Numbered from the stretch's first letter, positions 3,351-39,011 are shown. The stretch: DNA of 42,698 nucleotides from Opitutus sp. GAS368 (GCA_945862035.1 CAMAXB010000001.1:1-42698), one strand, 5' to 3'. Notes: generated by a model from the sequence alone, not told the origin. Numbers and translations: made by a program.

Positions 3351-3435
3351 TTACCACGGATGAACACCGATCAACACAGATAACGACCCTGCTAATCGGA
3401 TCGAATCGGTGACCATCGGTGGGCATCCGTGGTAA
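3351..3435. repeat. Intergenic hairpin, CACGGATGAACAC flavour
   Basis: TTACCACGGATGAACACCGATC (3351-3372) pairs with CATCGGTGGGCATCCGTGGTAA (3414-3435) at 19 of 22 positions, with a ~41-nt loop. It lies 3' of the 2711-3316 gene. Confidence 0.7.
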
Positions 3436-3525
3436 AAATGCCTTTCTCCGGTCGCAACCGATCATGTTGATCCAGCCGGTTGGCCGCTCGGCGCTTGCCA
3501 GTCGCGGCCGTTCGCGTGCTATGGC

Positions 3526-3957
3526 GTGATGAAACCGCTCCTACTGCTGGCTCTGGTGGCCGCCCTGTTCACGTCCGGCTGTGCCTCCTACCAGACCCAG
3601 GTCGATCGCAGCCAGCCGGCGGCGAATCACCGGCGGTACTTCGTTCAAGCCAATCTCAATGACAACCACGCGGTGGCGCAGCTGATCGCGTCAACCCTTC
3701 GCGCCCGCGGGCTCACCGCGGAAAGCGGACCGCTGACGATGATGCCGCCCGACACCGAAGTCGTCGTGACCTATCAGGACCGTTGGAACTGGGACTTTGG
3801 GCAGCACATGGTGTACCTCCGCATTGCGCTCCGCGACACCGCGACCAACGCGCCCGTGGCCAGCGCGGTGTTCAACGGTCCGGTCGCCATCAACAAGGAT
3901 CCGCCCGAAGTCGTCGCCCGCCTGCTCCGTGATCTGCTCGACCGCAACAGCCCCTGA
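3526..3957 (+). CDS. Hypothetical lipoprotein
   Basis: Signal peptide plus lipobox: MMKPLLLLALVAALFTSGC. 143 aa. Confidence 0.65.
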   Translation: MMKPLLLLALVAALFTSGCASYQTQVDRSQPAANHRRYFVQANLNDNHAVAQLIASTLRARGLTAESGPLTMMPPDTEVVVTYQDRWNWDFGQHMVYLRIALRDTATNAPVASAVFNGPVAINKDPPEVVARLLRDLLDRNSP

Positions 3958-3963
3958 AATCGC

Positions 3964-5145
3964 GTGAATCTTCCGGCGATTGCCTCACTGATCGCCGCAG
4001 GCCCAGCCCTGCGGCGGCAATTGATCGATTGGGCCGGGATCAACTCCGGTTCCGATCATCCGGCCGGGCTTGCCCGCATGGCCGAGGTCCTGGGCGATGC
4101 CTGTCGTGAGCTGACCCCGGAAGTTGCGCTCGAACCGCTCGACGCCGCCGGGCGGGTCGCGGTCCGCGCTCGCCTTCGGTCCACGGCCCCGATCCAGATC
4201 CTCTGCAGCGGACACTTCGACACGGTCTACGGCGCCACGCACCCCTTCCAAGGTACAACCGTGATTGACGGCGATCGGCTGAATGGCCCCGGAGTCGCAG
4301 ACATGAAAGGCGGTCTGGTGGTCATGCTCGCCGCCCTGGCCGCCTTCGAGCAAACGCCGGCGGCGGGCCAGCTGGGCTGGGAAATCCTGCTGACGCCGGA
4401 TGAGGAGACGGGCTCGCAAGCCTCACGTTCACTGATCGAATCGGCCGCTCCCCGTTTCGACGCGGCCCTGGTTTTAGAGCCCGCACGGGAAAACGGAGAT
4501 CTTGTGCGCTCGCGCAAGGGTACGGGGACCTATACGCTGACTTGTCACGGGCGCGAGGCCCACGCCGGACGCAATCCACAGGAAGGCCGCAATGCGATCG
4601 TCGCACTGGCCGCCATTCTGCTCGGCCTCCACCGCCTGCCGGACGAGGTGCCCGACCTGATGCTCAACATCGGTTCAATCCAAGGCGGAGGCGCCGTCAA
4701 CATCGTGCCCGCGCTCGCTTCCGCCGAGATCAATGTCCGGATTGGACGCACGGAGACCGCCACCGTCTTCCATGACCGCCTGCAGGCCCTGCTCGCCCCA
4801 TTCGAGGCGCAGGAAGGCTACCGCTTTGAGGTCGGGGGCGGCTTCAATCGCCTACCCATGGAGGCCGGCGAGGTCACAACGCGTCTGTTCGAGGTTTGGC
4901 AGGGATGCGCGCGGGATTTGGGCGAGCGCCCGTTCTCATGGGTGCATGTCGGTGGCGGTTCCGATGGTAATCTGCTGTCCGCGGCAGGCCTGCCCTGCAT
5001 CGACGGCGTCGGCGTCGTCGGGGGCGAACTCCACAGCGCACGCGAATGGATGGACCTCTCCAGCCTCACCGGCCGAGCCCGCATCGCCGCCCTCGCCCTG
5101 CACCGGATCGCCTCCGGCGAGATCGTCTTCCCGCAGCGGCGCTAA
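3964..5145 (+). CDS. M20/M25/M40 family metallopeptidase (carboxypeptidase G2-like)
   Basis: GTG start. Motifs HFDTVYG, GPGVADMKGG and LLTPDEETGS match the M20 metal-ligand regions. Confidence 0.85.
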   Translation: MNLPAIASLIAAGPALRRQLIDWAGINSGSDHPAGLARMAEVLGDACRELTPEVALEPLDAAGRVAVRARLRSTAPIQILCSGHFDTVYGATHPFQGTTVIDGDRLNGPGVADMKGGLVVMLAALAAFEQTPAAGQLGWEILLTPDEETGSQASRSLIESAAPRFDAALVLEPARENGDLVRSRKGTGTYTLTCHGREAHAGRNPQEGRNAIVALAAILLGLHRLPDEVPDLMLNIGSIQGGGAVNIVPALASAEINVRIGRTETATVFHDRLQALLAPFEAQEGYRFEVGGGFNRLPMEAGEVTTRLFEVWQGCARDLGERPFSWVHVGGGSDGNLLSAAGLPCIDGVGVVGGELHSAREWMDLSSLTGRARIAALALHRIASGEIVFPQRR

Positions 5146-5253
5146 GATCGATCCGATCCGGAAGTCGCGCAGAGACGCAGAGCCGCGGAGAAGACGACCC
5201 GAAAAGCCGAGCGCGTTTTCGATCTGCGCTGCGGCCCGACGCCTCCGCGCGAG
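5146..5253. repeat. Convergent-gene spacer: GATC triplet, periodic purine-rich arm and small inner hairpin
   Basis: GATCGATCCGATC lies at 5146-5158. The units GCGCAGAG/ACGCAGAG/CCGCGGAG lie at 5167-5190. An inner stem CGAAAA (5200-5205) pairs with TTTTCG (5216-5221). An imperfect partner arm CTGCGCTGCGGCCCGACGCCTCCGCGCGAG lies at 5224-5253. Confidence 0.5.
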
Positions 5254-5271
5254 TTCCTTGCTCGCGGCCGC

Positions 5272-5931
5272 TTACACGGACCGCACGAGCGTGCCGTACA
5301 CGGCGAAGTAGTGGCAGGCGCTTCCGCCGAGCACGAAGAGGTGCCAGACGGCATGGTGGTACGGCAGGCTGCGCCACAGGTAGAACACCGTGCCCCCGGT
5401 GTAGCACAAGCCACCGGCGAGCAGCAGCCAGAGTTGCGGCGGGGCGACCGCGGCCAGCATCGGCCGGGTGGCCACGACGACGAGCCAGCCCATGGCAAGG
5501 TAGAGGAGCGTCGAGACGATCGTGAAGCGGCCCGCAAACCAGAACTTCAGCACGATGCCCGCCACCGCCAGCCCCCAGATGATGCCGAAGAGGCTCCAGC
5601 CCCATGTTCCCCGCAGGCTCACCAGCAGGAAGGGCGTGTACGTCCCCGCAATCAGGAGGAAAATCGCCGCATGATCGAACTTACGCAGCAGACGCTTCGC
5701 CTCCGGCTCGCGAAAAGCATGATAGAGGGTAGACGCCGTATAGAGCAGCACCAGCGAGGTCCCGAACACGCAGGCTGCCACCACATCCCAAATGTCGCCG
5801 CGACGGGCGGACAGGGTCACCAATACCGCCATCCCCACCAAGCCCAGCAGCACGCCCGCAGCATGCGTAAGGCAGTTCGCCCGCTCCTCCGCCTCAGTGT
5901 ACACCGAAGGTGTGCTGGCAGGGCCGTTCAT
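5272..5931 (-). CDS. Hemolysin III / PAQR family membrane protein
   Basis: 7-TM profile, an N-terminal ANCLTHAAG motif and a C-terminal YHHAVWHLFVLGGSACHYF motif. I chose the ATG at 5931 (219 aa, typical length). The ORF extends to 6099. Confidence 0.85.
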   Translation of the reverse strand: MNGPASTPSVYTEAEERANCLTHAAGVLLGLVGMAVLVTLSARRGDIWDVVAACVFGTSLVLLYTASTLYHAFREPEAKRLLRKFDHAAIFLLIAGTYTPFLLVSLRGTWGWSLFGIIWGLAVAGIVLKFWFAGRFTIVSTLLYLAMGWLVVVATRPMLAAVAPPQLWLLLAGGLCYTGGTVFYLWRSLPYHHAVWHLFVLGGSACHYFAVYGTLVRSV

Positions 5932-6089
5932 GCGCCCAGCGTCAGACTCGAGCCCGAACTTGGCAACGGACTTTTCATGCGGTGCCGCGGGCCGGCCGTA
6001 ACCGTGCGAGGCTACGCAAATCCATCCACGCCTCGCGATTGCCAAATTCCCAGCCGGTCGCTTATCCTCCCCGCCTCCACCCGCCTCCC

Positions 6090-8303
6090 ATGATTCCATC
6101 CCCTGGACCCGCTCACGTTTGGAAATTCTACTGCATGGGTGGGCTCGACCAAGTTTCGCTGGAATCCGGCGCTGATCTGCTCGCGCTCGATCAGCTCGAC
6201 CAGAAGCTCTGGGTCGCCCTGAGCTGCCCGGTCAAGGGCCTCGAACTCGACGAGAGGACGCTCAGCCTGATCGACGGGGACAATGACGGTCGCATCCGCG
6301 TGCCGGAGCTGATCGAGGCGATCAAGTGGGCGGCGAAGCGCCTGAAGGACGCCGGCGAATTGCTTCGTGCATCCCCCGCCCTCCCGCTCGCGGCGATCGA
6401 CGACTCCACGCCAGAGGGCAAGATCCTGCTCGCCTCGGCCCGTCAGATCCTCGCCAACTTGGGCAAGCGGGACGCCACCGTCATCTCCGCGGACGACAGC
6501 GGCAACACCGCCAAGATTTTTTCCTCCAGCCCGCTCAATGGCGACGGCGTCATCCCGCCCGAGGCCACCGAGGACCCGGCGGCCCAGGCACTCATCAAGG
6601 ACATCATGGCCTGCCTCGGTGGCGTGCAGGATCGCACGGGGTCCGAGGGCGTGACGGCAGACAAGATTGCTGCCTTCTTTGACCAGCTCGCCGCCTACTC
6701 GGCCTGGGTCGGACTGAGTGCCTCCAAGGATATTGCGGTACTGGGGGAGGCCACCGATAAGGCTGTCGCCGCGCTGCGCGCCGTGCGGAGCAAGGTCGAG
6801 GACTACTTTGGCCGCTGCCGCCTCGCCGCCTTCGACGCCCGCGCCACCGCCGCCCTCAACCGGGCCGAGGGCGAGTACCTCGGCATCGCGGCCAAGGACA
6901 TGAAGATCACTGCCGACGAGGTTGCGGGTTTCCCGCTCTCGCGGATCGAGGCCGGCCGCGCGCTACCCCTGGTCGATAACGTCAATCCGGCCTGGGCCGC
7001 CGCGCTCGCGGCGTTGCACCAGACGGCGGTTGCTCCCGTGCTCGGAGCGGACAAGACCAGCTTGACCGAGGCTGATTGGATCGCACTTAACGCCAAGTTC
7101 GCCGCCTACGAAACCTGGCTCGGCGGCAAGGCCGGCAGCGCGGTCGAGAAGCTCGGCCTTCCGCGGGTGAAGGAAATCCTCGCCAGCCCAGCCCGCGAGG
7201 TCCTCGCCGGCCTGGTGGACAAGGACAAGGAGCTTGAGCCCGAGTTCAAGGCGATCTCGGACGTGGACCGCCTCACGCACTACCACCGGGACATGAGCAC
7301 GCTGCTCAATAACTTCGTCAATTTTTCCGACTTTTACTCGCCCGATCGTCCCGCGGTGTTCCAGGCCGGCACGCTCTTCCTCGACAGCCGCAGCACCGAA
7401 TTCTGCATCCAGGTCGCCGCACCCAGCCCGCTGGCCGCGATGAGCAAGGCCTACATCGCCTACTGCGACTGCAAGCGCTCGGGCGGGGAGACGATGAAGA
7501 TCGCCGCCTGCTTCACGCAGGGTGACAGCGATTACCTCTTCGTCGGACGCAATGGTGTGTTTTACGACCGCAAGGGCCGCGATTGGGATGCGACGATCAC
7601 GAGCATCGCCGACAACCCGATCAGCATCCGCCAAGCTTTCTGGTCGCCGTACAAGAAATTCATCCGCTTGATCGAGGATCAGATCGCGAAGCGCGCTGCC
7701 GCCGCCGAGGCCGACTCGAGCGCCAAGCTCGCCTCCGCCGCCGAGAAGACGGCCACCATGAACAAGGCCGCCCAGCCCGCCGAGCCCAGGAAGATCGATA
7801 TTGGCACCGTCGCCGCGATGGGTGTGGCGGTCGGCGCCATCGGTGGCGCCCTCGGGGCAATCGCCACGGGCCTCGCCCAACTGAACCCGATGCAGATCCC
7901 GCTGGTGCCGCTCGGCCTCATCACCGTCATTTCAGGTCCCTCGATGCTCATCGCTTGGCTCAAGCTGCGTCAGCGCAATCTAGGTCCAATCCTCGAGGCC
8001 AATGGCTGGGCCATCAACGGCCGCGTGAAGATCAACATCCCGCTCGGCACCAAGCTGACCGAAATGGCCGTCCTGCCCGCGAATGCCCGCCGCTCGCTCG
8101 AGGATCCGTACGAGGACAAGGCGGCGGCCGCCAAACGCCGGCAGATGATTCTTCTGGCCGTCCTCGTGCTGGCCGCCGTCGGCATCCGCTGGGACCACAA
8201 TCGCCACGGTCACTATTTCTGGCAGCCCGCTCCGGTTCCGGCTCCGATCGCGGTGGAAGCGCCTGCCGCTCCAGCGCCCGCGCCGGTCGAGGCCGCCAAG
8301 TAG
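6090..8303 (+). CDS. Large uncharacterised protein with an EF-hand-like loop and C-terminal TM / glycine-zipper segments
   Basis: 737 aa from the ATG at 6090. It has the canonical 12-residue loop DGDNDGRIRVPE and the glycine zipper GVAVGAIGGALGAIATG. Two further hydrophobic helices and a Pro/Ala-rich tail follow. An alternative start is at 6135. Confidence 0.75.
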   Translation: MIPSPGPAHVWKFYCMGGLDQVSLESGADLLALDQLDQKLWVALSCPVKGLELDERTLSLIDGDNDGRIRVPELIEAIKWAAKRLKDAGELLRASPALPLAAIDDSTPEGKILLASARQILANLGKRDATVISADDSGNTAKIFSSSPLNGDGVIPPEATEDPAAQALIKDIMACLGGVQDRTGSEGVTADKIAAFFDQLAAYSAWVGLSASKDIAVLGEATDKAVAALRAVRSKVEDYFGRCRLAAFDARATAALNRAEGEYLGIAAKDMKITADEVAGFPLSRIEAGRALPLVDNVNPAWAAALAALHQTAVAPVLGADKTSLTEADWIALNAKFAAYETWLGGKAGSAVEKLGLPRVKEILASPAREVLAGLVDKDKELEPEFKAISDVDRLTHYHRDMSTLLNNFVNFSDFYSPDRPAVFQAGTLFLDSRSTEFCIQVAAPSPLAAMSKAYIAYCDCKRSGGETMKIAACFTQGDSDYLFVGRNGVFYDRKGRDWDATITSIADNPISIRQAFWSPYKKFIRLIEDQIAKRAAAAEADSSAKLASAAEKTATMNKAAQPAEPRKIDIGTVAAMGVAVGAIGGALGAIATGLAQLNPMQIPLVPLGLITVISGPSMLIAWLKLRQRNLGPILEANGWAINGRVKINIPLGTKLTEMAVLPANARRSLEDPYEDKAAAAKRRQMILLAVLVLAAVGIRWDHNRHGHYFWQPAPVPAPIAVEAPAAPAPAPVEAAK

Positions 8304-8321
8304 GCGCGAACTCGTCGTGGG

Positions 8322-8370
8322 CCCGCGGAACACGCGGAGTACGCGGAATCGATCGGGAAACGATGGAGCG
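8322..8370 (+). repeat. Periodic purine-rich arm (CGCGGA units)
   Basis: CCCGCGGAACACGCGGAGTACGCGGAATCGATCGGGAAACGATGGAGCG has CGCGGA repeated with 8-9-nt spacing. The only partner is weak (TTCCGCGCG at 8430-8438). Confidence 0.45.
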
Positions 8371-8406
8371 TGCTGCCCTCAACGCGCTGGCTTGGTGGAA
8401 CTGGCC

Positions 8407-8474
8407 TCGCTGAGGCCGGTGCCTTAGCTTTCCGCGCGAGTCTTTCGGACCGGGGTCAGCGACCCCAGCCACAC
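8407..8474. repeat. Palindromic repeat element, copy 2
   Basis: TCGCTGAGGCCGGT (8407-8420) pairs with ACCGGGGTCAGCGA (8449-8462) at 12 of 14 positions. The tail CCCCAGCCACAC resembles the copy-1 tail CCCCAACTACAC. Confidence 0.7.
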
Positions 8475-8610
8475 GAGAGCAGGTCGAACCCGCGGCCATG
8501 AATCGTTGCCCCAACGGGAACGACCGGGCGCGGCGCCAAGTCGGCGATCTGGAGAGCGGTGTCCGGGAACGCATCGGAACCGCGCTCGGTCAGGTCGACT
8601 GGATCGTAGC

Positions 8611-8700
8611 TGTGTGAATCTGTGTTCATGGGTGGATAACGGATTGGCGGATCAAATCCCTTCGCGTCATTTCGCGCCCTTCGCGGTTATCTGATTGGTC
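8611..8700. repeat. Repeat-rich spacer: reverse-oriented CACGGATGAACAC-type arm plus three TTCGCG units
   Basis: TGTGTGAATCTGTGTTCATGGGTGG is the reverse complement of CCACCCATGAACACAGATTCACACA, which resembles the arm at 3351. TTCGCG recurs at 8661, 8671 and 8681. Confidence 0.45.
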
Positions 8701-8776
8701 GATCGTCTCGCCATCGTCGCGCTTACCCGGATCGCTTGCGTTTTACCTCATCTGGGACTGCTTAAGTCCATCTTTC

Positions 8777-9580: not shown

Positions 9581-9644
9581 GCCGCCGATCACTTGCCCGC
9601 CAAAGACGTGCCGGTGTGATACCCCGGCAAGTTCCGATCCCTTC

Positions 9645-9899
9645 ATGAACCCCTCCGAAGAACCTCTCCACCTCATCGGCGCCTTCGACCCCGCCGACAC
9701 CCGGCGCGTGACCGAGGCCCTCGAAGCGGCGAACATTCCTTTCGAAGTGGAATCCGACCACTCCGCCCTCGCCCAACCCGGGCGCTGGGTCTCGCTGGCC
9801 TTGGGCATGCCGACCGAAGGCTCGAAGCTCGCCCTCTTTGTCCCAGAATCCCGCGTTGATCAGGCCCTCGCCGAGGTGAAGCGCTTGTTCCCGGTCTGA
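9645..9899 (+). CDS. Small hypothetical protein (DUF2007-like?)
   Basis: 84 aa from the ATG at 9645 (MNPSEEPLHLIGAF...). The family assignment is tentative. Confidence 0.55.
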   Translation: MNPSEEPLHLIGAFDPADTRRVTEALEAANIPFEVESDHSALAQPGRWVSLALGMPTEGSKLALFVPESRVDQALAEVKRLFPV

Positions 9900-9952
9900 C
9901 GATCGGGCGTCCTGGGCGAGACCTCGAAACAGAGGCCGGAAACCAGATTTTT

Positions 9953-10027
9953 CACCACGAAATACACGAAAAGCGGATCCAGGATTTCTCCTCCGGAGAT
10001 TTCGTGTGTTTCGTGTATTTCGTGGTG
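9953..10027. repeat. Intergenic hairpin, CACGAAATACACGAAA flavour
   Basis: CACCACGAAATACACGAAA (9953-9971) is the perfect reverse complement of TTTCGTGTATTTCGTGGTG (10009-10027). That gives a 19-bp stem and a 37-nt loop, between convergent genes. Confidence 0.85.
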
Positions 10028-10333
10028 CGAATCCGAATTCATACCCAACCCGTGATTCGCGGGCACCCTGCCGATCGGCTCGATTCACTCCGCAATCCGC
10101 CCACCGCAATTCAGCAGACGAGCCGGAAGGGGTCAGGCCGGGATCAGAGGAGCCCTTCCGGAGGTCTCCTCCGAATCCGCCGCCTCTTCCTTGATGACTT
10201 TGTTCACCTGACGAACCGGACACGGGGTGAGACCGACCCTAAGGTGACAGGTCGCCAACCGGCGGACCACGAGGCGCCGACCCGTTGTCCACCCGTCATC
10301 TTTGGGGGATGTCCGGTAGAAATTGGGGTAAAG

Positions 10334-13939: not shown

Positions 13940-14437
13940 CACGTTCACTTTCTTTTTCGAGAGGTTGCCGGACAGGCGCCGGAGGGCGTCTTTTGCTAAA
14001 ACGTTTTTTCTAAATCGGCCATTTGTCAAGCAGGATTGGCTGCGTCGTTCGCGAAGGGGGGCAGGCCGCGCGCTGTTGTATTTGGCTCTGTTTTCCAGGC
14101 GCTTTCCCGTTGAAACCAACCAGCCACGGCTGTCGCAGCGAAAGAATCGAATGGATCGAAGCACCGTTCGGGAGCGAGGTCTCTCCGTTCCCCCCACGAC
14201 CGGACTCAACGGTCGGAAAATACAACACTACGCGGCCTGACCTTCGAGAACCTCGGTGCGCGGCTCGCGACGAGAAAACCGAGCATATCGGAAAGAACGT
14301 AGTCCCTCGCCTCCTTCTGGTCAGCCGCAAGTTCCGCTGCATCATCGATCGAGTAATTCAGGACGATGCAGGAAGACAGGATGTTTTCGACTATCTCTGA
14401 CGGCTCAAGGGGGTAACGGGATCGCTGGCGTTTCAGC

Positions 14438-23260: not shown

Positions 23261-23463
23261 AACCACGAAACACACGGAACACACGAAAAGAAATCCGTCG
23301 GCCGGGCCGTCGATCCCAAACAACGGGAGCTGATTTGCAGAAGGGAACGGAGAGAACCGAGGTTTGAGTCCGTCAGTCCCAGCTTTTTCCTCCCGCCTTC
23401 CTCCGTGCCCTCCTGTTCAAACGATCCGGGTATTCTTTCGTGTGTTCCGTGTATTTCGTGGTG
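23261..23463 (+). repeat. Composite nested hairpin element (outer CACGAAA flavour enclosing inner ACGGAGAG flavour)
   Basis: The outer arm AACCACGAAACACACGGAACACACGAAAAG (23261-23290) pairs with CTTTCGTGTGTTCCGTGTATTTCGTGGTG (23435-23463), about 26 bp with one internal mismatch. The inner stem 23337-23352 pairs with 23401-23416, 16 positions with 2 mismatches. Confidence 0.8.
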
Positions 23464-24335: not shown

Positions 24336-24953
24336 ATGTCCCTCCGCGCCTGGTTCCCCACCTACATCTATTGCGAGCCCCTGCAGTCCCGCGGGCTCCC
24401 TCAACTCAACGAAGACCTCGCCGCTGAATGCGCCCAGCTGCGCGATTTCGACCAGGCGGGCCGGCGCTGGTCCGCGGTGAATTATCCGGGTGGCTACACC
24501 AGCTACGCCTCGATGAATACCCTGCACACGTTCTCGAGCACGTTCGCTGCGTTGGAGCGCAAGCTCTCGCGCCACGTGAGGGCCTACGCCAAGGCGTTGG
24601 CCATGGACCTACGGGGTCGCACCATTCAAATGACCGACTGCTGGGTGAACATCATGCCACCGACGGCGGCCCACTCCCTGCACCTGCACCCCTTGTCGTT
24701 TGTCAGCGGCACTTACTATGTAAGGACGCCGAAGGGCTGCCCCGGCCTGAAGTTCGAGGATCCCCGCATGGATCGCTTCATGGCCGCACCGCCCAAGCGG
24801 CCCGATGCCGGGCCGGAACACCGGGCCCATGTCACCTACCCGGCCGAGGCCGGCAATGTCATCCTGTTCGAAAGCTGGCTGCGTCACGAAGTCGCCACCA
24901 ATCGCGTCGACCACGAGCGCATCAGCATCAGCTTTAACTATAACTGGAGCTGA
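24336..24953 (+). CDS. TIGR02466-family putative 2OG-Fe(II) oxygenase-like protein
   Basis: MSLRAWFPTYIY..., HLHPLSFVSGTYYV, GNVILFESWLRHEV and RISISFNY match the TIGR02466 / 2OG-FeII_Oxy_5 layout as I recall it. Confidence 0.8.
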   Translation: MSLRAWFPTYIYCEPLQSRGLPQLNEDLAAECAQLRDFDQAGRRWSAVNYPGGYTSYASMNTLHTFSSTFAALERKLSRHVRAYAKALAMDLRGRTIQMTDCWVNIMPPTAAHSLHLHPLSFVSGTYYVRTPKGCPGLKFEDPRMDRFMAAPPKRPDAGPEHRAHVTYPAEAGNVILFESWLRHEVATNRVDHERISISFNYNWS

Positions 24954-24981
24954 GCACGGCCGATCTGGCTTTACAGGATGT

Positions 24982-25064
24982 AACGGAGAGAACGGAGATT
25001 CGATCCTGCCCACCTGAAGTTTTCCCTCCTGCTTGCCTCTGTTCCCTTCTGTTCAAACCATCCG
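24982..25064 (+). repeat. ACGGAGAG-flavour hairpin with conserved 3' tail
   Basis: 24982-24988 pairs with 25047-25053, and 24990-24997 pairs with 25037-25044. That is 15 bp including 3 G.U pairs. The tail is CTGTTCAAACCATCCGG. It lies 3' of the TIGR02466 gene. Confidence 0.65.
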
Positions 25065-25997: not shown

Positions 25998-26414
25998 GTG
26001 TCCTCGTTCGAACCCGAGCCCAAGCGGCGCAACGTCCGCAATTTTTTCGCGGCGCTCCGGTATGCGATCGATGGGTTCTGGGCGGCCCTGCGCCATGAGC
26101 CCTCGTTCCGCGAGGACCTGCTCTTCGTGGTCCTGCTCGTCCCGTTCGCGATCATCCTGCCCGTCAACGCCGTCTCCACGGCATTGATGATCGCCTCCCT
26201 CCTGCTGATCATGATCGTCGAGCTGCTGAACTCGGCGATCGAGTGGACCATCGATTACCTGCGCCCGGAGATTCACCCGCTCGCCAAGCGGATCAAGGAT
26301 ATGGCCAGTGCAGCCGTTTTCCTCGCCTACATGAACTGCATCATCGTCTGGATCATCATGCTGTGGCCTTCGAATGACGTGTGGCGGCGGATCGAGGAAT
26401 GGTTGATACCATGA
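25998..26414 (+). CDS. dgkA: Diacylglycerol kinase (prokaryotic DgkA family)
   Basis: Three-TM small protein with the VELLNSAIE motif. I chose the GTG start at 25998 (138 aa). The ORF opens at 25866 but overlaps the SeqA-like gene. Confidence 0.85.
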   Translation: MSSFEPEPKRRNVRNFFAALRYAIDGFWAALRHEPSFREDLLFVVLLVPFAIILPVNAVSTALMIASLLLIMIVELLNSAIEWTIDYLRPEIHPLAKRIKDMASAAVFLAYMNCIIVWIIMLWPSNDVWRRIEEWLIP

Positions 26415-27187
26415 TTCCGCGCCTCTCCGCCCTCGTCACCGGCGCTTCCCGCGGCATCGGCGCCGCCATTGCCCGCGCCCTCGCTGCCCGTGGTGTGCGC
26501 GTCGCCGTGCACTACCAGCGCAACGAGGCCGCGGCTCGCGCCACGCTCGCCGCGCTCACCGGGTCCGGACACCGGCTGGTCAAGGGCGACTTGTCGGACG
26601 CCGCTGGGGCGGAGGCAGTCTGGACGGCCGCGACAGGCCACCTCGGCCCGGTCGGACTGCTGGTGAACAACGCCGGCATCTATGAAACACACCCGATCCT
26701 GACCTGCGACTTTGATGGCTGGCAGGAAGCTTGGACGCGCACGCTTGGCGCCAATCTCATCGGGCCGGCGCATCTGACCTTTCTCGCGGCCCGCGCCATG
26801 GCGGCGGCCGACCTGGCCGATCCCGGCCATGGCCGTGGCCGGGTGGTGGCCATCTCCTCCCGCGGGGCCTTCCGTGGCGAGCCCGAAGCCCCCGCCTACG
26901 GCGCCAGCAAGGCGGGCCTCAATGCGCTCGGCCAATCCCTCGCGCGAGCCCTCGCCCCGCAGGCGGTCTATTTTTTCGCGGTCGCCCCCGGCTGGGTTGC
27001 GACGGATATGGCGGCGGAACACCTCGCCGGCCCGGCCGCGGCCGAGATCCTCGCCCAGCACCCGCTCGGCCGCGTGGCTGATCCGGATGAAATCGCCCGC
27101 ACCGCCGTCTTCTGCGGCCTCGACGCGCCCGCGGCCATGACCGGTGCGATCATTGACGTGAACGGCGCATCGTATTTGCGGACGTGA
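26411..27187 (+). CDS. SDR family oxidoreductase (FabG-like)
   Basis: TGASRGIG cofactor motif and YGASKAG (YxxxK). The ATG at 26411 overlaps the dgkA stop (ATGA). Confidence 0.85.
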   Translation: MIPRLSALVTGASRGIGAAIARALAARGVRVAVHYQRNEAAARATLAALTGSGHRLVKGDLSDAAGAEAVWTAATGHLGPVGLLVNNAGIYETHPILTCDFDGWQEAWTRTLGANLIGPAHLTFLAARAMAAADLADPGHGRGRVVAISSRGAFRGEPEAPAYGASKAGLNALGQSLARALAPQAVYFFAVAPGWVATDMAAEHLAGPAAAEILAQHPLGRVADPDEIARTAVFCGLDAPAAMTGAIIDVNGASYLRT

Positions 27188-27212
27188 GCCAGGTAGCTCA
27201 ATCCGTTTTCCA

Positions 27213-27306
27213 GGAGGGAATAGAGAGAACGGAGGGAGTAACGCTGACGATCGGGTGGAGGAATCATTCCTCTCCGTTTCCTCTGTTTCTTCCTGTGAAC
27301 GGATCG
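27213..27306 (+). repeat. ACGGAGAG-flavour hairpin with related 3' tail
   Basis: 27213-27236 pairs with 27270-27293. That is 24 positions with 1 mismatch and 5 wobble pairs, most with the G on the 5' arm. The tail is CCTGTGAACGGATCG. It lies between convergent genes. Confidence 0.7.
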
Positions 27307-27323: not shown

Positions 27324-28439
27324 TTACCGCACCCGCGTGAAAAAGCCAATGCCGACGCCCAGCATGGCGAGGTTGGGGACCAGCGCTGCCCAGAGCGGCG
27401 GGATGACCTCGCGTCCGCCCATCGCGGTGGACGCCTTGAGCAGGACAAAGTAGACAAGGAAGAGGCCGATGGATTTGGATACGCCCACCGCCGGGTTCAC
27501 ACGGACGCCGCTGATCGCAAAGGGAATCGCGATCGCCATGATGATCAGGGGACCGAGGGTCTCGGCTAGCAGGCTGTAGTAGCGGACGGCGTAGGCTGTG
27601 ACCTTCGGGTTTTCATCGACGGTAAAGTAGTCGATGATCCGGCTTAATTCGGAGAAAGAGAGGTCCACGGGCCGCAGGTCGAACACCAGCATGAGCGCGG
27701 GGTCCTCCCGGAAATGAGGCACGCTTTTCTCGGCAAAGGACACGGTGCGCACGACCTCGCCGGTCTCGGGTTCAAGCCAGGTTTCACGCCCGTCGAAGAA
27801 CACCCACGAGCCACGGGCGGCGTCGAAGCCCGCCTCGCGCGCCGTGAGCCGGGTCTTTTCGCGACGAAGGGCATCCAGCTCCGAGACGGTGACGCCGTAG
27901 CCGCGGCCGGTGAAGCGGCTGTAGCGGTTGAAGTACCACATCCGGTTCTGGCGCTGATTGTCGAAGGCGACCCCCGTGGTCGTGCCAATGCGGTCGACGG
28001 CGCTGTTGGCGCGGGCCTCCGACCGGAACTGCAGATTCTGCAGCAGCGAGCGGGACTCCTCCACCGACCAGGGAATCACCGTGGCATTCACGTACCACAT
28101 CACCCCGCAGAGCACCGCCCCGGAAAGCCACAGAACCCGCGTCAGCCGGAAAAGCCCGACCCCCGCCGCGCGCAGGGCCGTGATTTCATTGTTCCGATGC
28201 AGCTGCCCCAGCGTGTAGAGCAGGGAGATCAGCAGGGTCAGGGGCAGGACGATGGACAGGTAGCTGGGGAGCTTGACCGCAAAGTAAACCAGGACATCCG
28301 CGAATGTGGCGCCATCGTCGAGCAGGTCCCGGAAATCCTCATACATCGCCTGCATCAGCAGGAGCCCCAGCATCGCGCAAAGCACCAGGCCGAGCATTTT
28401 CAGCCATTCGCGCAGCAGGTAGCGGTCGATGAGGGTCAT
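27324..28439 (-). CDS. LptF/LptG (YjgP/YjgQ) family permease
   Basis: MTLIDRYLLREWLKMLG... N-terminus, six-TM layout and a large periplasmic loop. Start at the ATG at 28439. Confidence 0.85.
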   Translation of the reverse strand: MTLIDRYLLREWLKMLGLVLCAMLGLLLMQAMYEDFRDLLDDGATFADVLVYFAVKLPSYLSIVLPLTLLISLLYTLGQLHRNNEITALRAAGVGLFRLTRVLWLSGAVLCGVMWYVNATVIPWSVEESRSLLQNLQFRSEARANSAVDRIGTTTGVAFDNQRQNRMWYFNRYSRFTGRGYGVTVSELDALRREKTRLTAREAGFDAARGSWVFFDGRETWLEPETGEVVRTVSFAEKSVPHFREDPALMLVFDLRPVDLSFSELSRIIDYFTVDENPKVTAYAVRYYSLLAETLGPLIIMAIAIPFAISGVRVNPAVGVSKSIGLFLVYFVLLKASTAMGGREVIPPLWAALVPNLAMLGVGIGFFTRVR

Positions 28440-28687
28440 GAGAGGGCGGCCGAGACAGGCCATGCTGGCGGGGGGGAACCGGCGGCGGCGACTCAAAAAG
28501 ACCGGTACGGTGACACCGGCCTGATGGAGCGGAGTTCGCTGACCCCGAACCGCGGTGCTGGCCCTGCCTGAACAAGGGATGAAGCCGACCCGAAGCCATC
28601 CCCGGGCCGAAGGCGGCTGGATCGAGCGCCATGACCTGTACAGTTTGGTTGAAAGCGGGCCAAACCCTCCTCACGCTTGGCCCCCGC

Positions 28688-29815: not shown

Positions 29816-29842
29816 GCCCCACCTTTCACCCCATCCTCCATC

Positions 29843-30964: not shown

Positions 30965-31059
30965 TCCGGGTTTGACGTCCGCCAGATTTCGCGCGCAGCC
31001 TCAACGCTGCGCGCGCCTGTTTTCCCGCGCCGCTTGGGCGCCGCGCCCGATCCTCCTTT

Positions 31060-31950: not shown

Positions 31951-31951
31951 C

Positions 31952-33678: not shown

Positions 33679-33682
33679 TGAA

Positions 33683-33792
33683 ATTTTCGATTTTCGAATT
33701 TCGATTTTCGAATGAGGCCGCGACGGAACGGTTTCCTGCGAACGTCGCGGTCCGGTCTGAAATCGAAATTCGAAAATCAAAATTCGAAAATG
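33683..33792. repeat. AT-rich nested palindromic element between livG and livF
   Basis: The outer arm 33683-33707 (ATTTTCGATTTTCGAATTTCGATTT) pairs with 33760-33784, about 25 bp with 1 mismatch. The inner perfect 8-bp stem is CCGCGACG (33718-33725) with CGTCGCGG (33743-33750). The element's 3' edge (33784-33792, TCGAAAATG), which contains the livF ATG (33790), can pair with 33683-33690 in an alternative register. Confidence 0.85.
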
Positions 33793-34497
33793 CTTAAAGT
33801 CACCGATCTCTCCGTCTCCTACGGCGCCATTCAGGCGCTGGGCGGTGTCTCGTTTGAGATTCCGGCAGGCGACATCGTGACGCTCATCGGCGGCAACGGC
33901 GCGGGCAAGACCACCGCCCTCCGCACGATCTCGGGCCTGCTGCGGCCGCTCGCGGGCACAATCCACTTTCGCGGCGAGGAGATCACCCGGCTGCAGCCCC
34001 ATGACATTGTCGCCCGGGGCCTCTGCCATGTGCCCGAGGGCCGCATGATCTTCGCCAATCTGACGGTGGACGAGAATCTCGCGATGGGCGCCTACCTGCA
34101 GACGGACAAGGCCAAGGTCGCCGGCATCCGCGATTATGTTTTCGGAATTTTCCCCCGTCTGAAGGAACGCCTGAAACAGGTCGCAGGAACACTGTCGGGC
34201 GGCGAACAGCAGATGCTCGCCATCGGCCGCGCCCTGATGGGGGACCCCAAGTTCCTCATGCTCGACGAGCCCTCGCTCGGCATCGCGCCGCGCCTGATCA
34301 GCACGATTTTCGAGAAGATCGTGGAGATCAACCGGAAGCAGGGCATCACGATCCTCCTCGTGGAGCAGAATGCCAACCTCGCGCTCGAGGTCAGCCGCTA
34401 CGCCCATGTCCTCGAGACCGGACGCGTCGCGGTCCATGGGCCCAGCCAAGACCTCCGCCAAGACCCGCAGTTGAAGGCCGCCTACCTCGGCGGCTGA
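33790..34497 (+). CDS. livF: Branched-chain amino acid ABC transporter ATP-binding protein LivF
   Basis: MLKVTDLSVSYG, Walker A GGNGAGKTT and signature LSGGEQQMLAIGRAL. The ATG at 33790 fits the family length (235 aa). Confidence 0.9.
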   Translation: MLKVTDLSVSYGAIQALGGVSFEIPAGDIVTLIGGNGAGKTTALRTISGLLRPLAGTIHFRGEEITRLQPHDIVARGLCHVPEGRMIFANLTVDENLAMGAYLQTDKAKVAGIRDYVFGIFPRLKERLKQVAGTLSGGEQQMLAIGRALMGDPKFLMLDEPSLGIAPRLISTIFEKIVEINRKQGITILLVEQNANLALEVSRYAHVLETGRVAVHGPSQDLRQDPQLKAAYLGG

Positions 34498-34502
34498 GGA
34501 GC

Positions 34503-34585
34503 CCGTCGGGTAATCGCATCGGAAGCCTATCGGTCCCATCCGTCGCATAGGACCTATACGACGGAGAGGACGGAAGACGATCCGG
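34503..34585 (-). repeat. Imperfect hairpin with the pyrimidine arm first (reverse-oriented ACGGAGAG-like arm)
   Basis: CCCATCCGTCGCATAGG (34535-34551) matches CCTATACGACGGAGAGG (34553-34569) at 14 of 17 positions. Periodic CGxxTCGG units lie upstream and GACGATCCGG downstream. It sits between convergent genes. Confidence 0.45.
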
Positions 34586-34593
34586 CGGCCCCC

Positions 34594-36624
34594 TCACGCG
34601 GGCGTCGAGCCGGCTGAAGCCGCGTCCTCGCTGCCTTCGCCCGCTTCCTTCGCTGCGGCCGGTGTCCGCGGGGGCGTCGCCGTCGATTCCGTCGCCCCGC
34701 GCAAGCGCGCCTCACGGTCGGGGGCGAGGCGCCGCAGCTCGAGCCGCGCGAGCCGGAATTCGATCATGCCCGTCATGCCCGTGCTGATACAGGACTCGAG
34801 GTGGGCGACGGCCGAAGCCTGGTCGCCGGACGCTAGGCTCGTTTGGGCTAGCAGAAAGTAGGCCTCGCTCAGCTGGGATGCCACCGTGAGCTCGCCGCCT
34901 TCGCGCGCCCGGCGAAGGAGATTCTCCTCATTGATCCCGCCCTGCAGATAACCCAGGCAGTGGGCGTCCCACGAATCGGGCGAGACCTGCTCCAGCGCCT
35001 TCGCGACGAGGCGGCGCTCGGTACCGCCCGCGCGCCGGGCGGACAAGTCGGCGAGGATGGCCGGCCGGCCGGTGGCCGGATCGCGCTGGGCCTCCGTGCG
35101 GAAATGCGTGCGCGCCTCCTCGTACCGCCCCTGGCCGAAGCGGAAAGCGCCCAGCGCAAGTTCCGCGCGCTCGCGGTCCGGGCGGGTGCGCAGGATCTCC
35201 TTGAAGGCCGCCTCGGCCTCCTCGTCCCGCTGCAAATCCCCAAGGACCACGGCCCGGGCCATGCCCAGGACGGGATCCCGGTGGGGTAGCCGGGCCGCCG
35301 CGGCGAAGTCCGCGAGCGCCGCCTCGTGCCGGCCCGCCCGGCCATGGAGCTGCCCACGCTCCCGGTAGGCCTGGGCCAAGGCCACCGGCTGGCCGCGCAG
35401 CATGTCGATCCGGAAGTCGCGCTCGCCCAGCTCCCGGTCCAGCTGGTGGCGAAGAATCGGATTGGTCGCCACGTCCCCCGTCCATTCCAGTTCCTCCGGC
35501 TCGGGTCCGCTCAGCGCAACCGTGGTGATGGTGCCTTCACTCCAAGCGGTGAGCAGTGCGTCGGCCTCAGCCGGATCCAGCAGCTTGGGCAGGAGCCGCC
35601 GCCAGGTGATGGCATCGCCCGGGCTCGCAAAGCCGCGGGCGACCACCAGCAAACGCTGCAGGGTCAGGGCGAGTTCAGGCGCATCCGCCTGCTCCAGTTC
35701 CTGGACGATCTCACTGATTTCCTTGTGCCCGAGCGCAACTCCGCGATCGCTCAGGCGCTGCCAGTTGGCCAGCAGCTTCTGGCCGGCCAAGCGGGCCGCC
35801 GCATCCCCCCGAAAGGAGGCCGCATTGATCGGGTCGAGGGCATGCAGCCGGTCGATTTCCTCCCGGGACGACTCCAAGGCTGCGGTCCGCCGCCGGGCGC
35901 TTTCCTCGGTCAGCACGCGGCCGCCGTCCCTCCCCGGACTTCCCCGCGCCGCCCGCGCCCGCAGCTCTATCAGGGCGGACAGCACGAGGGCGTTTCCCGG
36001 CCAGACCGCCAGGGCATTTTCATAGACCGCCTCCACTTGCGTCAGTTCGGCCCCGGCAGTGCGGGCATCGATTCCCTCAATGCTGTCAAGAATCAGGGCG
36101 CCCAGCCCATAGGTGTGCGCCAGGTAGAGCGGGCGCGTCCGCGCATCGATCGGCAGCAGCTGCGTGGTGGCCATCAGGACGCGATTCGCCCGCCAGACCT
36201 CACCGGCACTGGCAAAGAGCATGGCCTGCAGGAGGAGCAGGCTCCCGTCCGTCGGGGCAATCTCCAGCGAGGCCCGCCAGAAATTGGCGTTGCGCGTCAC
36301 CAGGGCATCCACGTCCAGTTCATCGAGGCGGGGCCCCTCGCCGCTGGCGATGCGGCGGCGGGCGGCGTCGATGTCCTTCACCCAGGCGCTCACGCCCGGG
36401 CACTGCCCCGCCGGGATTTGCGCATAGACCCGGGTCAGATCGAGCACCGTCTGCCAGGCGCGCAACCGGGCGTCCCGCAGGTCCTCGCCGAAGGATTCCG
36501 GGGCGGCTGCCACCACCGCCGGGGCTGGCGCCACGCCGGGTGCAACCGTCCGGCAGCCCCCCAGTAAAAAGGCGGCGGCCAAGGTCACCCACACGACGGG
36601 TTTGTAGGGCACAAAAGACAGCAT
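34594..36624 (-). CDS. Large TPR-repeat lipoprotein, function unknown
   Basis: 676 aa from the ATG at 36624, with signal peptide and lipobox [27 protein letters not shown]-like helical repeats run throughout. The ORF extends to 37095, but that part overlaps two plus-strand genes. Confidence 0.7.
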
Positions 36625-36738
36625 GGGGAAGTGACACCGAGTATCCGCCGGGGTCGCCTGAGACGAACAGAAAATGCATGGGTACGGACTGGTTTTAGCC
36701 GTTGCGAAGGCGTGGGGGCAGGATTCGATCTCCTCCCC

Positions 36739-36993
36739 ATGTCCGCTGGTTCCACTCCTCCCAATCCGTCCCCCGGCTCCAAGGATCCGCTCCATGGCGT
36801 GACGCTGGAGCACCTGCTGACAGTGCTGGTTGAGCGCCACGGCTGGGAAGGGTTGGCCGCGCGGGTCGACGTTCGCTGCTTCAAGTTTGATCCCAGCATC
36901 AAATCGAGTCTTCAGTTCCTGCGCCGCACCCCTTGGGCCCGAACCAAGGTGGAACAGATCTTCCGCGAAGAGGTCAGGCGTTCCGCCCCTTGA
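36739..36993 (+). CDS. DUF2132 (VF530-like) small DNA-binding-fold protein
   Basis: [57 protein letters not shown] matches the DUF2132 signature as I recall it. Confidence 0.75.
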
Positions 36994-37070
36994 TTTTTTG
37001 GCGAAGTTGCTAAACTCAATTCCCTTTCGGCCCGACCGGGCCGCCTTCACTTCATCCCATTCCTCCCGCC

Positions 37071-38924
37071 ATGTCCACGCCAACGCCCACGCCACAGACC
37101 TACGAGTTTCAAGCCGAGATCAAGCAACTGCTCGATATCGTCATCCACTCGCTCTACACGGAGAAGGAAATCTTCGTGCGCGAGCTGGTTTCCAATGCGT
37201 CCGATGCACTGGAGAAGCTCCGCCATCTCCAGCTCACGGAGAAGGAAGTCTTTGACGACCAGGCCACGCTGGAGATCAACCTCACGACCGACGACCAGGC
37301 CAAGACGCTCACGATTCAGGACTTTGGCCTCGGCATGACCCGGGAGGAGCTGATCGAGAATCTCGGCACCATCGCACACTCCGGATCCAAGGCCTTCCTC
37401 AAGGCCCTGAGCGAGGGCGGCCAGAAGAACGCCAGCCTCATCGGGCAGTTCGGCGTCGGCTTCTACTCCGCGTTCATGGTGGCCAAGTCGGTCAAGGTCT
37501 ACAGCCACTCCTGGCGCGCGGGTGAACCCGCCCATGTCTGGTCCAGCGACGGCTCCGGCAGCTACGTGGTCGAGCCGGCCGAGGACCAGCGCCGCGGGGC
37601 CAGGATCGTGATCGAGCTCAAGGATGACTGCGCGGACTTCAGCCAGGAGTGGAAGATCAAGGAGATCCTCGAGCGCTACAGCGCGTTCGTATCCTTCCCG
37701 ATCAATCTCAACGGCAAGCGCATCAACACGGTTCAGGCGCTGTGGCTGCGCTCGAAGTCCGAGATCAAGGACGAGGAGTACACCGAGTTTTACAAGTTTC
37801 AGGCCCACGCCTTCGACGAGCCCCGCCTGCGTCTGCACTTCAGTGCGGACGCCCCGCTGCAAATCAATGCGCTGCTCTTCGTCCCGAAGGAGAACGTGGA
37901 GAAGTTCGGCATGGCGCGGTCGGAGCCCGCCGTCTCGCTCTACTGCCGCAAGGTCCTGATCGACGCCAAGCCCAAGGATTTGCTGCCGGAGTGGCTGCGC
38001 TTTCTCAAGGGTGTCGTCGACAGCGCGGATCTCCCGCTGAACATCTCGCGTGAGACGATGCAGGACCGCGCCCTGATCGAGAAGCTCAACAAGGTCATCA
38101 CGAAGCGCTTCATCAAATTCCTGTCCGAGGAGGCCAAGAACCGCCCCGAGGCCTACCATGAGTTCTACGGTCAGTTCGGCGTCTACCTGAAGGAGGGCGC
38201 AGCCCTCGACTTCACCCACAAGGACGAGCTGGTGAAGCTCCTCCGTTTCGAGTCCTCGCTCACGGAGAAGGGAAAGACCACCTCGCTCACCGACTACGTC
38301 TCGCGGATCGGCGCCGAACAGAAGGAGATCTATTACCTGATCGGGCCCAACCGCGAGGCGATCGAAAGCGGGCCGTACCTCGAGGCCTTCAAGGCGCGCA
38401 ATCTCGAGGTGCTGTTCTGCTACGAGCCGGTCGACGAGTACGTGATGAACAATGTGCGCGAGTTCGACAGCAAGAAGCTCACCGCCGCCGACCACTCCGA
38501 CGTGAAGCTGTCCGATCTGCCCAAGCCACCCGACGAGGGCGGCCTGACCGCGGACGAGACCAAGGGCCTCGCCGAGTGGCTCAAGGCTACGCTGGGTGAG
38601 CGGGTCGCCGAGGTGAAGGCCAGCGACCGCCTCGTCGATTCCCCCGCCCTTGCGCTCAATGCCGACAAGTTCATGTCCCCGCACCTGCGCCGCATGATGA
38701 AGGCGATGAATAAGGACGGCGGCGATGCGCCCCTGCGCGTGAATCTCGAGATCAACCCGCGTCACCCGCTGATGAAGCGCCTCGCCGCCTCCCGCACCGC
38801 CGCGCCCGACACGGCGGCGCTGGTCGCGGCCCAGGTCCTCGACAACGCCCTGATTTCCGCCGGCCTGCTCGAGGATCCGACAACCATGGTCAAGCGGCTG
38901 TATCAGCTGCTCGAGCAGGTCTGA
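37071..38924 (+). CDS. htpG: Molecular chaperone HtpG (Hsp90)
   Basis: YEFQAEIKQLLDIVIHSLY, ELVSNASDALEK and GQFGVGFYSAF. 617 aa. Confidence 0.95.
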   Translation: MSTPTPTPQTYEFQAEIKQLLDIVIHSLYTEKEIFVRELVSNASDALEKLRHLQLTEKEVFDDQATLEINLTTDDQAKTLTIQDFGLGMTREELIENLGTIAHSGSKAFLKALSEGGQKNASLIGQFGVGFYSAFMVAKSVKVYSHSWRAGEPAHVWSSDGSGSYVVEPAEDQRRGARIVIELKDDCADFSQEWKIKEILERYSAFVSFPINLNGKRINTVQALWLRSKSEIKDEEYTEFYKFQAHAFDEPRLRLHFSADAPLQINALLFVPKENVEKFGMARSEPAVSLYCRKVLIDAKPKDLLPEWLRFLKGVVDSADLPLNISRETMQDRALIEKLNKVITKRFIKFLSEEAKNRPEAYHEFYGQFGVYLKEGAALDFTHKDELVKLLRFESSLTEKGKTTSLTDYVSRIGAEQKEIYYLIGPNREAIESGPYLEAFKARNLEVLFCYEPVDEYVMNNVREFDSKKLTAADHSDVKLSDLPKPPDEGGLTADETKGLAEWLKATLGERVAEVKASDRLVDSPALALNADKFMSPHLRRMMKAMNKDGGDAPLRVNLEINPRHPLMKRLAASRTAAPDTAALVAAQVLDNALISAGLLEDPTTMVKRLYQLLEQV

Positions 38925-38942
38925 ACCGATCCCTGCAGACCT

Positions 38943-39011
38943 CACCACGGATGGACACGGATGAACACGGATTCGGTCGGGTCGGATTCCCTATCCGTGC
39001 GAATCCGCGTT
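38943..39011. repeat. Imperfect hairpin, CACGGATGAACAC flavour
   Basis: The units CACGGATGGA / CACGGATGAA / CACGGATTCGG lie at 38946-38976. Helix 38966-38972 pairs with 38993-38999, and helix 38955-38962 pairs with 39003-39010. It lies 3' of htpG. Confidence 0.55.

Follow-up and report, generated by a model that had tools for sequence, protein, structure and literature searches.

Arrays of short tandem units that lie between genes, and in part face an inverted copy of themselves, have been described in Xanthomonas, where each genome carries ~185 arrays of the heptamer GGGAATC, 89-93% of them intergenic (Rehm et al. 2015, PMC4692102). These arrays lie on average 28 nt past the end of the upstream open reading frame (ORF), only 7-8% of them fall between divergent genes, 70-75 per genome form convergent inverted pairs able to fold into stem-loops, and most are transcribed, with no association to insertion sequences or a transposase (PMC4692102). 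Two further systems come close, namely repetitive extragenic palindromes (REPs) and REP doublets (REPINs), which carry GTAG or CGTC tags and are mobilised by REP-associated tyrosine transposases (RAYTs; Di Nocera et al. 2013, PMC3733652; Bertels and Rainey 2011, PMC3116915), and the TAACTGA repeats of Beggiatoaceae, which lie just upstream of start codons and form an indirect repeat in one of 170 sets (MacGregor 2015, PMC4679880). Here we describe intergenic hairpins with arms made of tandem units in a 42,698-nt stretch of DNA from Opitutus sp. GAS368 (the window), which is the whole of contig C1 of a metagenome-assembled genome (MAG, termed G000; 2.85 Mb, 331 contigs, 65% GC, 86% complete). 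The HtpG encoded in the window is 94-95% identical to that of MAGs labelled 'uncultured Opitutus sp.' or 'Opitutaceae bacterium', which places the host in the Opitutaceae, phylum Verrucomicrobiota. We found no description in the literature of such elements in Verrucomicrobiota, or of a multi-flavour repertoire. Their architecture and niche are already known from the Xanthomonas arrays, with cyanobacterial short tandemly repeated repetitive sequences (STRRs) as a further precedent, so the statement in an earlier note on the window that the class had no formal description was too strong; new are the many coexisting flavours, a phylum-wide family (F1), the nesting of elements in loops and an orientation bias.

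The earlier note had proposed that at least ten intergenic sites in the window share one design, in which an arm of tandem purine-rich units faces a complementary pyrimidine-rich arm, and that such repeats would exceed those in shuffled sequence. We scanned the genome for inverted repeats with at least 16 Watson-Crick matches and arms within 300 nt, covering 397 kb of intergenic and 2.45 Mb of coding DNA, with ten dinucleotide-preserving shuffles as a control; an arm counted as periodic if, shifted by 6-11 nt, it matched itself at 0.65 or more. The expected excess was found: intergenic DNA held 243 inverted repeats against ~2.3 in the shuffles, and coding DNA held 53, making intergenic DNA ~28-fold denser per kb. 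Arms were periodic in 128 of the 243, compared with 1.6% of shuffled arms, with periods of 7 (58 cases), 9 (33), 10 (32) and 8 (3). The arms consist of 2-4 tandem units of 7-10 nt, are 25-36 nt long and 80-100% complementary, and the whole element spans ~70-250 nt. Sorted by unit sequence, the elements fall into at least 13 flavours, bearing out the idea of one architecture in several flavours rather than one duplicated sequence; the CG core ascribed to every unit is absent from AATGACC, CAGAAGC and GTCAGAA, and is thus not true of all flavours. The units are:

F1: TTAACCACGGATGNACACGGAT
F2: ACCACGAAAYACACGRAA
F3: GATTTTCGAWTTTCGA
F4: (GTAGCGA)n
F5: TGCGGAW
F6: AATGACC
F7: GGACGGATR
F8: GGGAACGGAGAGAAC
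F9: CGCGAATCA
Flavour without an F number: CAGAAGC
Flavour without an F number: GTCAGAR
F12: CGCRGAGN
F13: CGAATGACGAA

In F1, F2, F4 and F12, the best-sampled flavours, arrays are usually paired into a hairpin, and no flavour has the runs of at least three Gs in each unit that would give it G-quadruplex potential. The same genome also holds ordinary non-periodic palindrome families, including GTAG-tagged REPs.

On balance, we read these flavours, for which we use the name tandem-unit palindromes, as palindromic dispersed repeats, small and non-autonomous and of 13 or more families, that probably spread in the manner of REPINs or MITEs (miniature transposable elements with inverted repeats) and have a REP-like effect on RNA. 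As to how they are mobilised, we infer that whole elements would be copied to new intergenic sites, chiefly just past stop codons and within loops of hairpins already in place, and that after insertion they would decay by point mutation, deletion of an arm or replacement. The families themselves, their descent by copying, their turnover, their location and their orientation bias are shown by the data below.

The evidence favours families descended by copying, mobile-like in behaviour, over generation or selection at the level of structure, which the earlier note had suggested. A 22-nt loop (caaaccatcggattctggatcc) is common to F1 copies at unrelated loci, in both orientations and with unrelated flanks. 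In every family the order of the arms is fixed, with the array as written coming first and its complement second, and the complement is never found only upstream; this order points to copying, since a pure structural requirement would permit both. Of 13 genes with a tandem-unit hairpin on either side, 6 have matching flavours, where ~1.8 would be expected, and inner inverted repeats occur in loops at 0.54 per kb against 0.14 elsewhere in intergenic DNA (7 observed, ~1.9 expected).

Turnover was followed in two comparison genomes of the same genus, G003 and G005, whose contigs are syntenic with the window and which are ~95% identical to each other in aligned DNA. Large differences between them lie mainly in intergenic spacers and involve tandem-unit hairpins or REPINs, and in Opitutaceae genomes that are otherwise 95% identical these elements are the part that changes most. 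One clean insertion, of an 82-nt F2 element into an F1 loop, distinguishes G003 from G005: the empty site reads GGATTGG-GCACC-TCC and the filled site GGATTGG-TCACCACGAAATAC...TTTCGTGGTT-TCACC-TCC, so that in this single event TCA(CC) stands on either side of the insert, against GCACC when the site is empty. Gain and loss like those of REPs or MITEs, a possibility already raised for these sites, are also seen in the orthologous spacers, where different flavours occupy the same place. The window sites were characterised by RNA folds with shuffle controls (z scores) and a repeat finder, and those named in the earlier note all lie 10-40 nt 3' of the stop of a plus-strand gene. Together with their orthologs the sites are:

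3350-3436: F1 hairpin (arms 3350-3381 and 3405-3436; unit CACGGATNNN, CACRGATNNN, period 10), dG -44/-49, z -4.8/-6.1, 34 nt past the stop of the gene at 2711-3316; orthologous F1 hairpin in G003 and G005.
5160-5250: decayed F12 hairpin (CGCRGAGN, period 8) with left arm 5167-5190 and a degenerate right arm, minus-strand fold -51.7, z -2.7; a complete right arm, CTCTGCGGCTCTGCGTCTCTGCGCG, is kept only in the G005 ortholog.
8318-8352: array of three CGCGGAA-type units directly after the stop of the gene at 6135-8303; conserved in G003 and G005.
8611-8635: solo fragment of an F1 right arm (ATCTGTG units) without a left arm; no significant fold, z +0.4/+0.8.
9953-10027: F2 hairpin (arms 9953-9971 and 10009-10027; CACGRAANN, period 9), 19 of 19 bp paired, z -7.0/-5.6, after 9899; in G003 the orthologous F2 sits inside an F9 hairpin, and in G005 F9 encloses a decayed F2 that encloses a REPIN.
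10028-10064: remnant right arm of the F9 outer hairpin at the same site, CCCGTGATTCGCGGGC, its left arm lost in the window genome; both F9 arms are kept in G003 and G005.
23262-23462: F2 outer hairpin (36-nt arms, 23262-23297 and 23427-23462, 86% complementary) enclosing F8, after 23249; an F8-like remnant in G003, F2 around an F1 hairpin in G005.
23330-23425: F8 hairpin, unit GAACGGAGA, nested in the preceding F2 loop; weak alone, z -0.2/-1.4.
24972-25062: F8 hairpin with a weak fold, 20 nt past the stop of the gene at 24336-24953; F1 in G003, F1 with F2 inserted in its loop in G005.
27205-27300: F8 hairpin, unit GAACGGAGA, between the convergent genes 26399-27187 and 27324-28463, plus-strand fold -54.9, z -5.8; the right arm is absent from the orthologous G003 copy.
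33683-33791: F3 hairpin (TTTCGAW, period 7) with a GC-rich inner stem, filling the livG-livF spacer, z -5.7; an F5 (TGCGGAW) hairpin takes its place in G003 and G005.
34535-34580: short GGACGGA-type (F7-like) hairpin with the pyrimidine arm first, after livF, z -3.4/-5.8; a long F7 hairpin in G003, a GTAG REPIN in G005.
38943-39011: F1 hairpin 19 nt past the htpG stop, right arm partly decayed, z -1.6; orthologous F1 at loci L001-L003, with F2 nested in G003.

Measured against this list, the hairpin design first proposed is strong at 3350, 9953, 23262, 27205, 33683 and 34535, and weaker but recognisable at 23330-23425, 24972-25062 and 38943-39011. Three of the proposed sites fall short of it, 8611-8635 being a lone right arm, 5167-5190 having a decayed right arm and 8322-8350 having no convincing partner; for the last, a candidate partner at 8655-8685 could form a duplex of -32.7 kcal/mol, which the full minimum-free-energy fold does not use, and an outer hairpin between 8322 and 8655 was accordingly rejected. 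The element at 34535, taken at first for a reversed copy of the flavour that we call F8, is instead the GGACGGA-type hairpin listed above.

The proposed bias towards intergenic DNA and gene 3' ends holds throughout the genome. With gene calls from our own rough codon-usage caller, in which stops are exact and starts approximate, tandem-unit hairpins were found at 0.55 per kb in convergent, 0.43 in co-directional and 0.12 in divergent spacers, the poorest class with 11 copies, and unit arrays were almost absent from called genes. In co-directional spacers the elements stood at a median of 14 nt from the upstream stop and 30 nt from the downstream start, lying closer to the stop in 63 of 81 cases, and the hairpin occupied a median of 69% of the spacer. 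Positions within operons include both sides of nuoK, sucB and tatC, as well as the spacer between livG and livF.

In their tandem short units (commonly ~4 per array), ~90% intergenic location, closeness to, or overlap with, the upstream stop and rarity between divergent genes, the Xanthomonas GGGAATC arrays are much like these elements. Head-to-tail units and a post-stop intergenic location, both characteristic of tandem-heptamer arrays, are found here too, and the periods of 9-10 extend that definition. The Xanthomonas arrays, however, are a single G-rich flavour studied as a G-quadruplex former, most are unpaired and they reach 26 units, whereas the Opitutaceae elements come in at least 13 flavours, none of them quadruplex-prone, and have documented nesting and insertion polymorphism. 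Cyanobacterial STRRs and the Beggiatoaceae TAACTGA repeats are likewise intergenic tandem heptamers with several flavours per genome (PMC4679880), but are mainly direct arrays, in contrast to the inverted pairs past stop codons seen here.

REPs and REPINs (PMC3733652, PMC3116915) are also high-copy extragenic palindromes at gene 3' ends and in operons, with rapid turnover, nesting and presence/absence polymorphism, and they share a niche with the tandem-unit hairpins, each replacing the other at orthologous sites. REP stems, unlike those described here, are single palindromes of 20-40 bp without tandem units, and a GTAG or CGTC tag is found only in F4, with F1, F2, F3 and F5-F13 lacking one. 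The GTAG REP/REPIN family of this genome (TGTAGCYGGSSTCGCTGASSCCGG) has ~50 intergenic copies, including two in the window at 1-48 and 8407-8474, and its REPINs insert into the loops of tandem-unit hairpins as well as replacing hairpins at orthologous sites. One such REPIN insertion (G005:C25:36530-36680, compared with G003:C18:52320-52360) is accompanied by a ~13-nt duplicated target (CCCC(G)CCTGATCCGG); to our knowledge, RAYT-type elements are not expected to duplicate their target, making a REPIN with a ~13-nt duplication unusual.

MITEs offer a third comparison and, with REPs and REPINs, come nearest in behaviour. The Correia elements of Neisseria are MITEs of 80-200 nt with inverted repeats of ~25-35 nt; they insert close to the ends of genes, undergo co-transcription and form long hairpins. 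The elements described here resemble them in size, in location near gene ends, in their long hairpins and in having terminal inverted repeats around a short non-coding element. F1 and F8 are moreover bounded by TA or TTAA, which may belong to the palindrome; many MITEs are mobilised by IS630/Tc1-type elements, whose duplicated target is TA. Unlike in MITEs, the inverted repeats here are internally periodic and the internal sequences are highly variable; no parent insertion sequence was seen between distant F1 arms (see below).

At the RNA level, the elements were considered as classical terminators, and this was rejected: they occur within operons and have no downstream T-run, the six bases after the stems containing 26% T, that is, no enrichment. 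F1 and F8 have T-runs (TTTT) before the stem and A-runs (AAAA) after it. With intrinsic terminators they share the form of a stem-loop soon after a stop codon, but they differ in lacking a U-tract, in having stems of 25-35 bp with internal loops and loops of up to 180 nt, and in lying also between co-transcribed operon genes. The missing U-tract and the placement inside the nuo, suc and liv operons argue that they are not classical terminators, and efficient intrinsic termination by them is unlikely. Motifs of a stem followed by a T-run are themselves present at 7.3% of 3' ends, compared with 3.0% in antisense and 4.6% upstream of starts, and within the window's first 20 kb they show no enrichment. 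Given the missing U-tract and the positions within essential operons, the elements most likely act on mRNA 3' ends in the way of REPs or bacterial interspersed mosaic elements. Co-transcribed with the upstream gene, they would form very stable stems (median ~-51 kcal/mol) with small internal loops at the unit linkers, which could act as a barrier to 3'-5' exonucleases or as a site for processing by a double-strand-specific RNase, and could thereby shift how stable the upstream mRNA segment is relative to the downstream one. They fill 69% (median) of the co-directional spacers that they occupy, some of which belong to respiratory and transport operons; they therefore probably influence mRNA 3' ends, and how strongly the genes of an operon are expressed relative to one another, in a phylum for which transcript ends have hardly been studied.

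That the two arms stay complementary while differing between copies was a claim of the earlier note, and 37 F1 copies put in register sustain it in part. Across the three units, the variable core (CAC-R-GAT) had a partner in 97%, 78% and 78% of copies, where 50-56% would be expected if the arms were independent, and co-variation was weak at the outer linker; at the inner linker, positions 18-19 were paired in 27-30% of copies, which is the chance level. As the cores pair and the inner linkers do not, the stems are 7-8-bp helices split by small internal loops. Changes on both arms are seen between orthologs as well, with a core of CACGAAA/TTTCGTG in the window against CACGGAA/TTCCGTG at the orthologous site in G003, and, at the 3351 site, a double change of G-to-C and C-to-G. 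In G003, one arm has been homogenised independently of the other. The co-variation of the core is real, and would also be expected from the copying of whole elements together with correction within the palindrome.

Whereas a perfect palindrome would have no orientation, these elements are imperfect. In 54 of 81 co-directional tandem-unit hairpins the antisense fold was more stable than the sense fold (binomial p = 0.004, Wilcoxon p = 0.0004), consistently for genes on either strand; non-periodic palindromes had no such bias (21 antisense vs 22 sense). Stem mismatches comprised 83 antisense wobbles vs 54 sense wobbles, and selection on sense-strand RNA through G.U pairs was rejected, as both the wobbles and the folds run in the opposite direction. 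These orientation data fit either strand-specific insertion or a selection pressure towards a weaker sense fold. In F4 the orientation is strict: all 14 of its co-directional copies read (GTAGCGA)n-GCAT, loop and pyrimidine arm in the sense of the gene, and with a period of 7, three units give TAG stops in all three frames just past the gene. Its copies lie on contigs C31, C55, C60, C103, C250 and others. Arrays of AATGACC, the same unit as STRR2 (TTGGTCA, its reverse complement), likewise supply TGA stops in all three frames. The C-rich loops of F4 were also considered as Rho-loading sites, a role rejected because an excess of C over G is general to sense-strand intergenic DNA. Co-directional spacers without inverted repeats are pyrimidine-rich on the sense strand, with C exceeding G in 712 and the reverse in 204, and T exceeding A overall; this skew could reflect Rho-dependent termination or mutational asymmetry.

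For a mobilising enzyme, the genome offers two RAYT genes (Y1_Tnp, PF01797), at C25:6250-6576 and C43:5965-6195, each flanked by its own non-tandem GTAG REP type. As both adjoin ordinary REPs only, a RAYT as the mobiliser of all flavours was rejected; with a genome that is 86% complete, the absence of a cognate RAYT is not proven. No autonomous parent was seen between F1 arms 0.4-2 kb apart at eight loci in six genomes. The F4 unit carries a GTAG tag, and its inner end (GTAGCGAGCAT) resembles a RAYT-flanking REP (GTAGCGGGAGCAT); as a lead, this resemblance suggests that F4, and F4 only, may use a single-strand, hairpin-targeting HUH/RAYT-like route.

Several points weigh against the account of copied families with a REP-like effect. 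Only one clean insertion event was seen, and neither a transposase nor a parent element that has these ends came to light, the RAYT genes being flanked by ordinary REPs. The same spot keeps some hairpin in all three genomes, and after htpG distant Opitutaceae have terminators of a GC-stem and T-run where this lineage has F1 (and L010 has F8), a persistence that also fits host selection for structure. The less stable fold in 54 of 81 cases is that of the sense strand, which selection for a sense-RNA hairpin would not predict, and distances to start codons are approximate, given the rough gene caller.

The alternative that survives best, though we judge it unlikely, is that the host selects a strong hairpin after its genes as a terminator, attenuator or mRNA stabiliser, with interchangeable flavours recruited or grown in place. 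It would account for a hairpin in the same spacer of all three sister genomes despite a change of flavour (F3 to F5, or F7 to REPIN), for the succession of structures after htpG, for the rarity of classical terminator motifs and for co-varying cores, including the double change at 3351. On the other hand, the fixed arm order, shared loops and phylum-wide termini (see below) speak of descent by copying and not of convergence, linker positions do not co-vary, and arms have been lost without replacement (in the G003 ortholog of 27213, and at 5167 and 8611 in the window). Nor would this alternative predict a sense strand that folds worse than the antisense, elements within operons (nuo, suc and liv) in which termination would do harm, or the copies in divergent spacers.

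How far the copied families extend was surveyed in 301 Verrucomicrobiota genomes from 149 genera, with a three-unit F1 pattern and its reversal as a control. The pattern occurs in 59 genomes and 46 genera, commonly as close plus/minus pairs, and the reversed pattern in none of the 301; G000 alone has 65 F1 arms against 0 for the control. The F1 termini (TTAACCACRGAT) are conserved phylum-wide in hosts of 38-65% GC. F1 arms were also found on 67 viral-contig stretches in IMG/VR (L102-L168, e.g. L157 and L119), several with 5-7 copies per contig, which could mark a route between lineages or host DNA in prophage calls. Heptamers of the TTCGANN type occur in 49 of the 301 genomes in other variants (TTCGATG, TTCGACG), with some arrays of at least 11 units. 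Genomes rich in F1 and those rich in TTCGA overlap in 3 cases vs 1.5 expected; as this is no more than chance, the two are independent families, and a single generator for all flavours was rejected. Uninterrupted TTCGATG arrays of 9-11 or more units (G065:C29:7659-7747, G166:C11:93703-93777 and G169:C5:98004-98071) are STRR-like simple repeats rather than hairpins.

More speculatively, and in our view improbably, the elements could form an as yet undescribed, phylum-wide superfamily of mobile hairpins in Verrucomicrobiota, carried on viral contigs as well, which would move by recognising short repeats of a unit and by aiming at single-stranded hairpin loops and at sites past stop codons, with no cognate transposase so far recognised. 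The strict orientation of F4 (14 of 14) and the weakened sense fold would then reflect strand-specific transposition of single-stranded DNA or host selection on the behaviour of the elements in mRNA.

It is more doubtful still that the units (e.g. ACACGGATGR of F1) are arrays of binding sites for a sequence-specific DNA- or RNA-binding protein, with the complementary arm masking or regulating access. The conservation of the F1 unit and termini across 46 of 149 genera and 38-65% GC is what such a role would predict, although conserved termini are equally expected under recognition by a transposase. In one lineage of 43% GC (G162; L176, C66:179000-180000, 356-600), F1 units form a ~90-nt direct repeat (AAGAACACGGATGGACACGGATAGTCACGGATGGGGGCTAGGG...) without a complementary arm, an arrangement that also suits binding sites. 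The F1 unit ACACGGAUGA further matches the CsrA/RsmE consensus, (A/U)CANGGANG(U/A). That candidate failed: CsrA (PF02599) is present in 32 of the 301 genomes and absent from G000 and from 15 of the 22 genomes with at least five F1 arms, and F1 units as CsrA-binding arrays were rejected. Thirteen unrelated flavours would in addition require many factors, and the chance-level co-occurrence of F1 and TTCGA-type heptamers argues against this role as well.

A chance or low-complexity product of a GC-rich genome, or an artefact of MAG assembly, has the low complexity of the arms in its favour and nothing else, and can be dismissed in view of the excess over dinucleotide shuffles, the empty reversed-pattern controls and the orthologous-site copies in independent assemblies and single-contig genomes.

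The elements offer a tractable example of numerous palindromic repeat families that coexist without a known mobiliser, and their clean insertion events, nesting rules and orientation bias can be mined across hundreds of genomes. They are also of practical use as strain-typing markers, and a source of spurious low-complexity ORFs, of which the one flagged by the earlier note at 10006 is confirmed and reads VFRVFRG. The whole window gave no Rfam match at the gathering score. Two genes of G005:C25 are broken, at ~4986-5212 and 26090-26563 (L099, L100), by stretches of N and by C-rich sequence of low complexity; these interruptions look like scaffolding or assembly artefacts, not biology. Lastly, the window contains a non-periodic palindrome with a 25-nt inverted repeat at 14059-14083 and 14218-14242 (GGGCAGGCCGCGCG...TGTTGTATTT), whose family (GGGGTCTGGCCG...TGTTACATT) is present on many contigs, and further non-periodic palindrome families of the genome are AGGTGGAGCG..TTGCCCTCAAC, CCATCAAGTAACCTATTGGGTTAC and GTGTCACGTAWTACGTGACAC.

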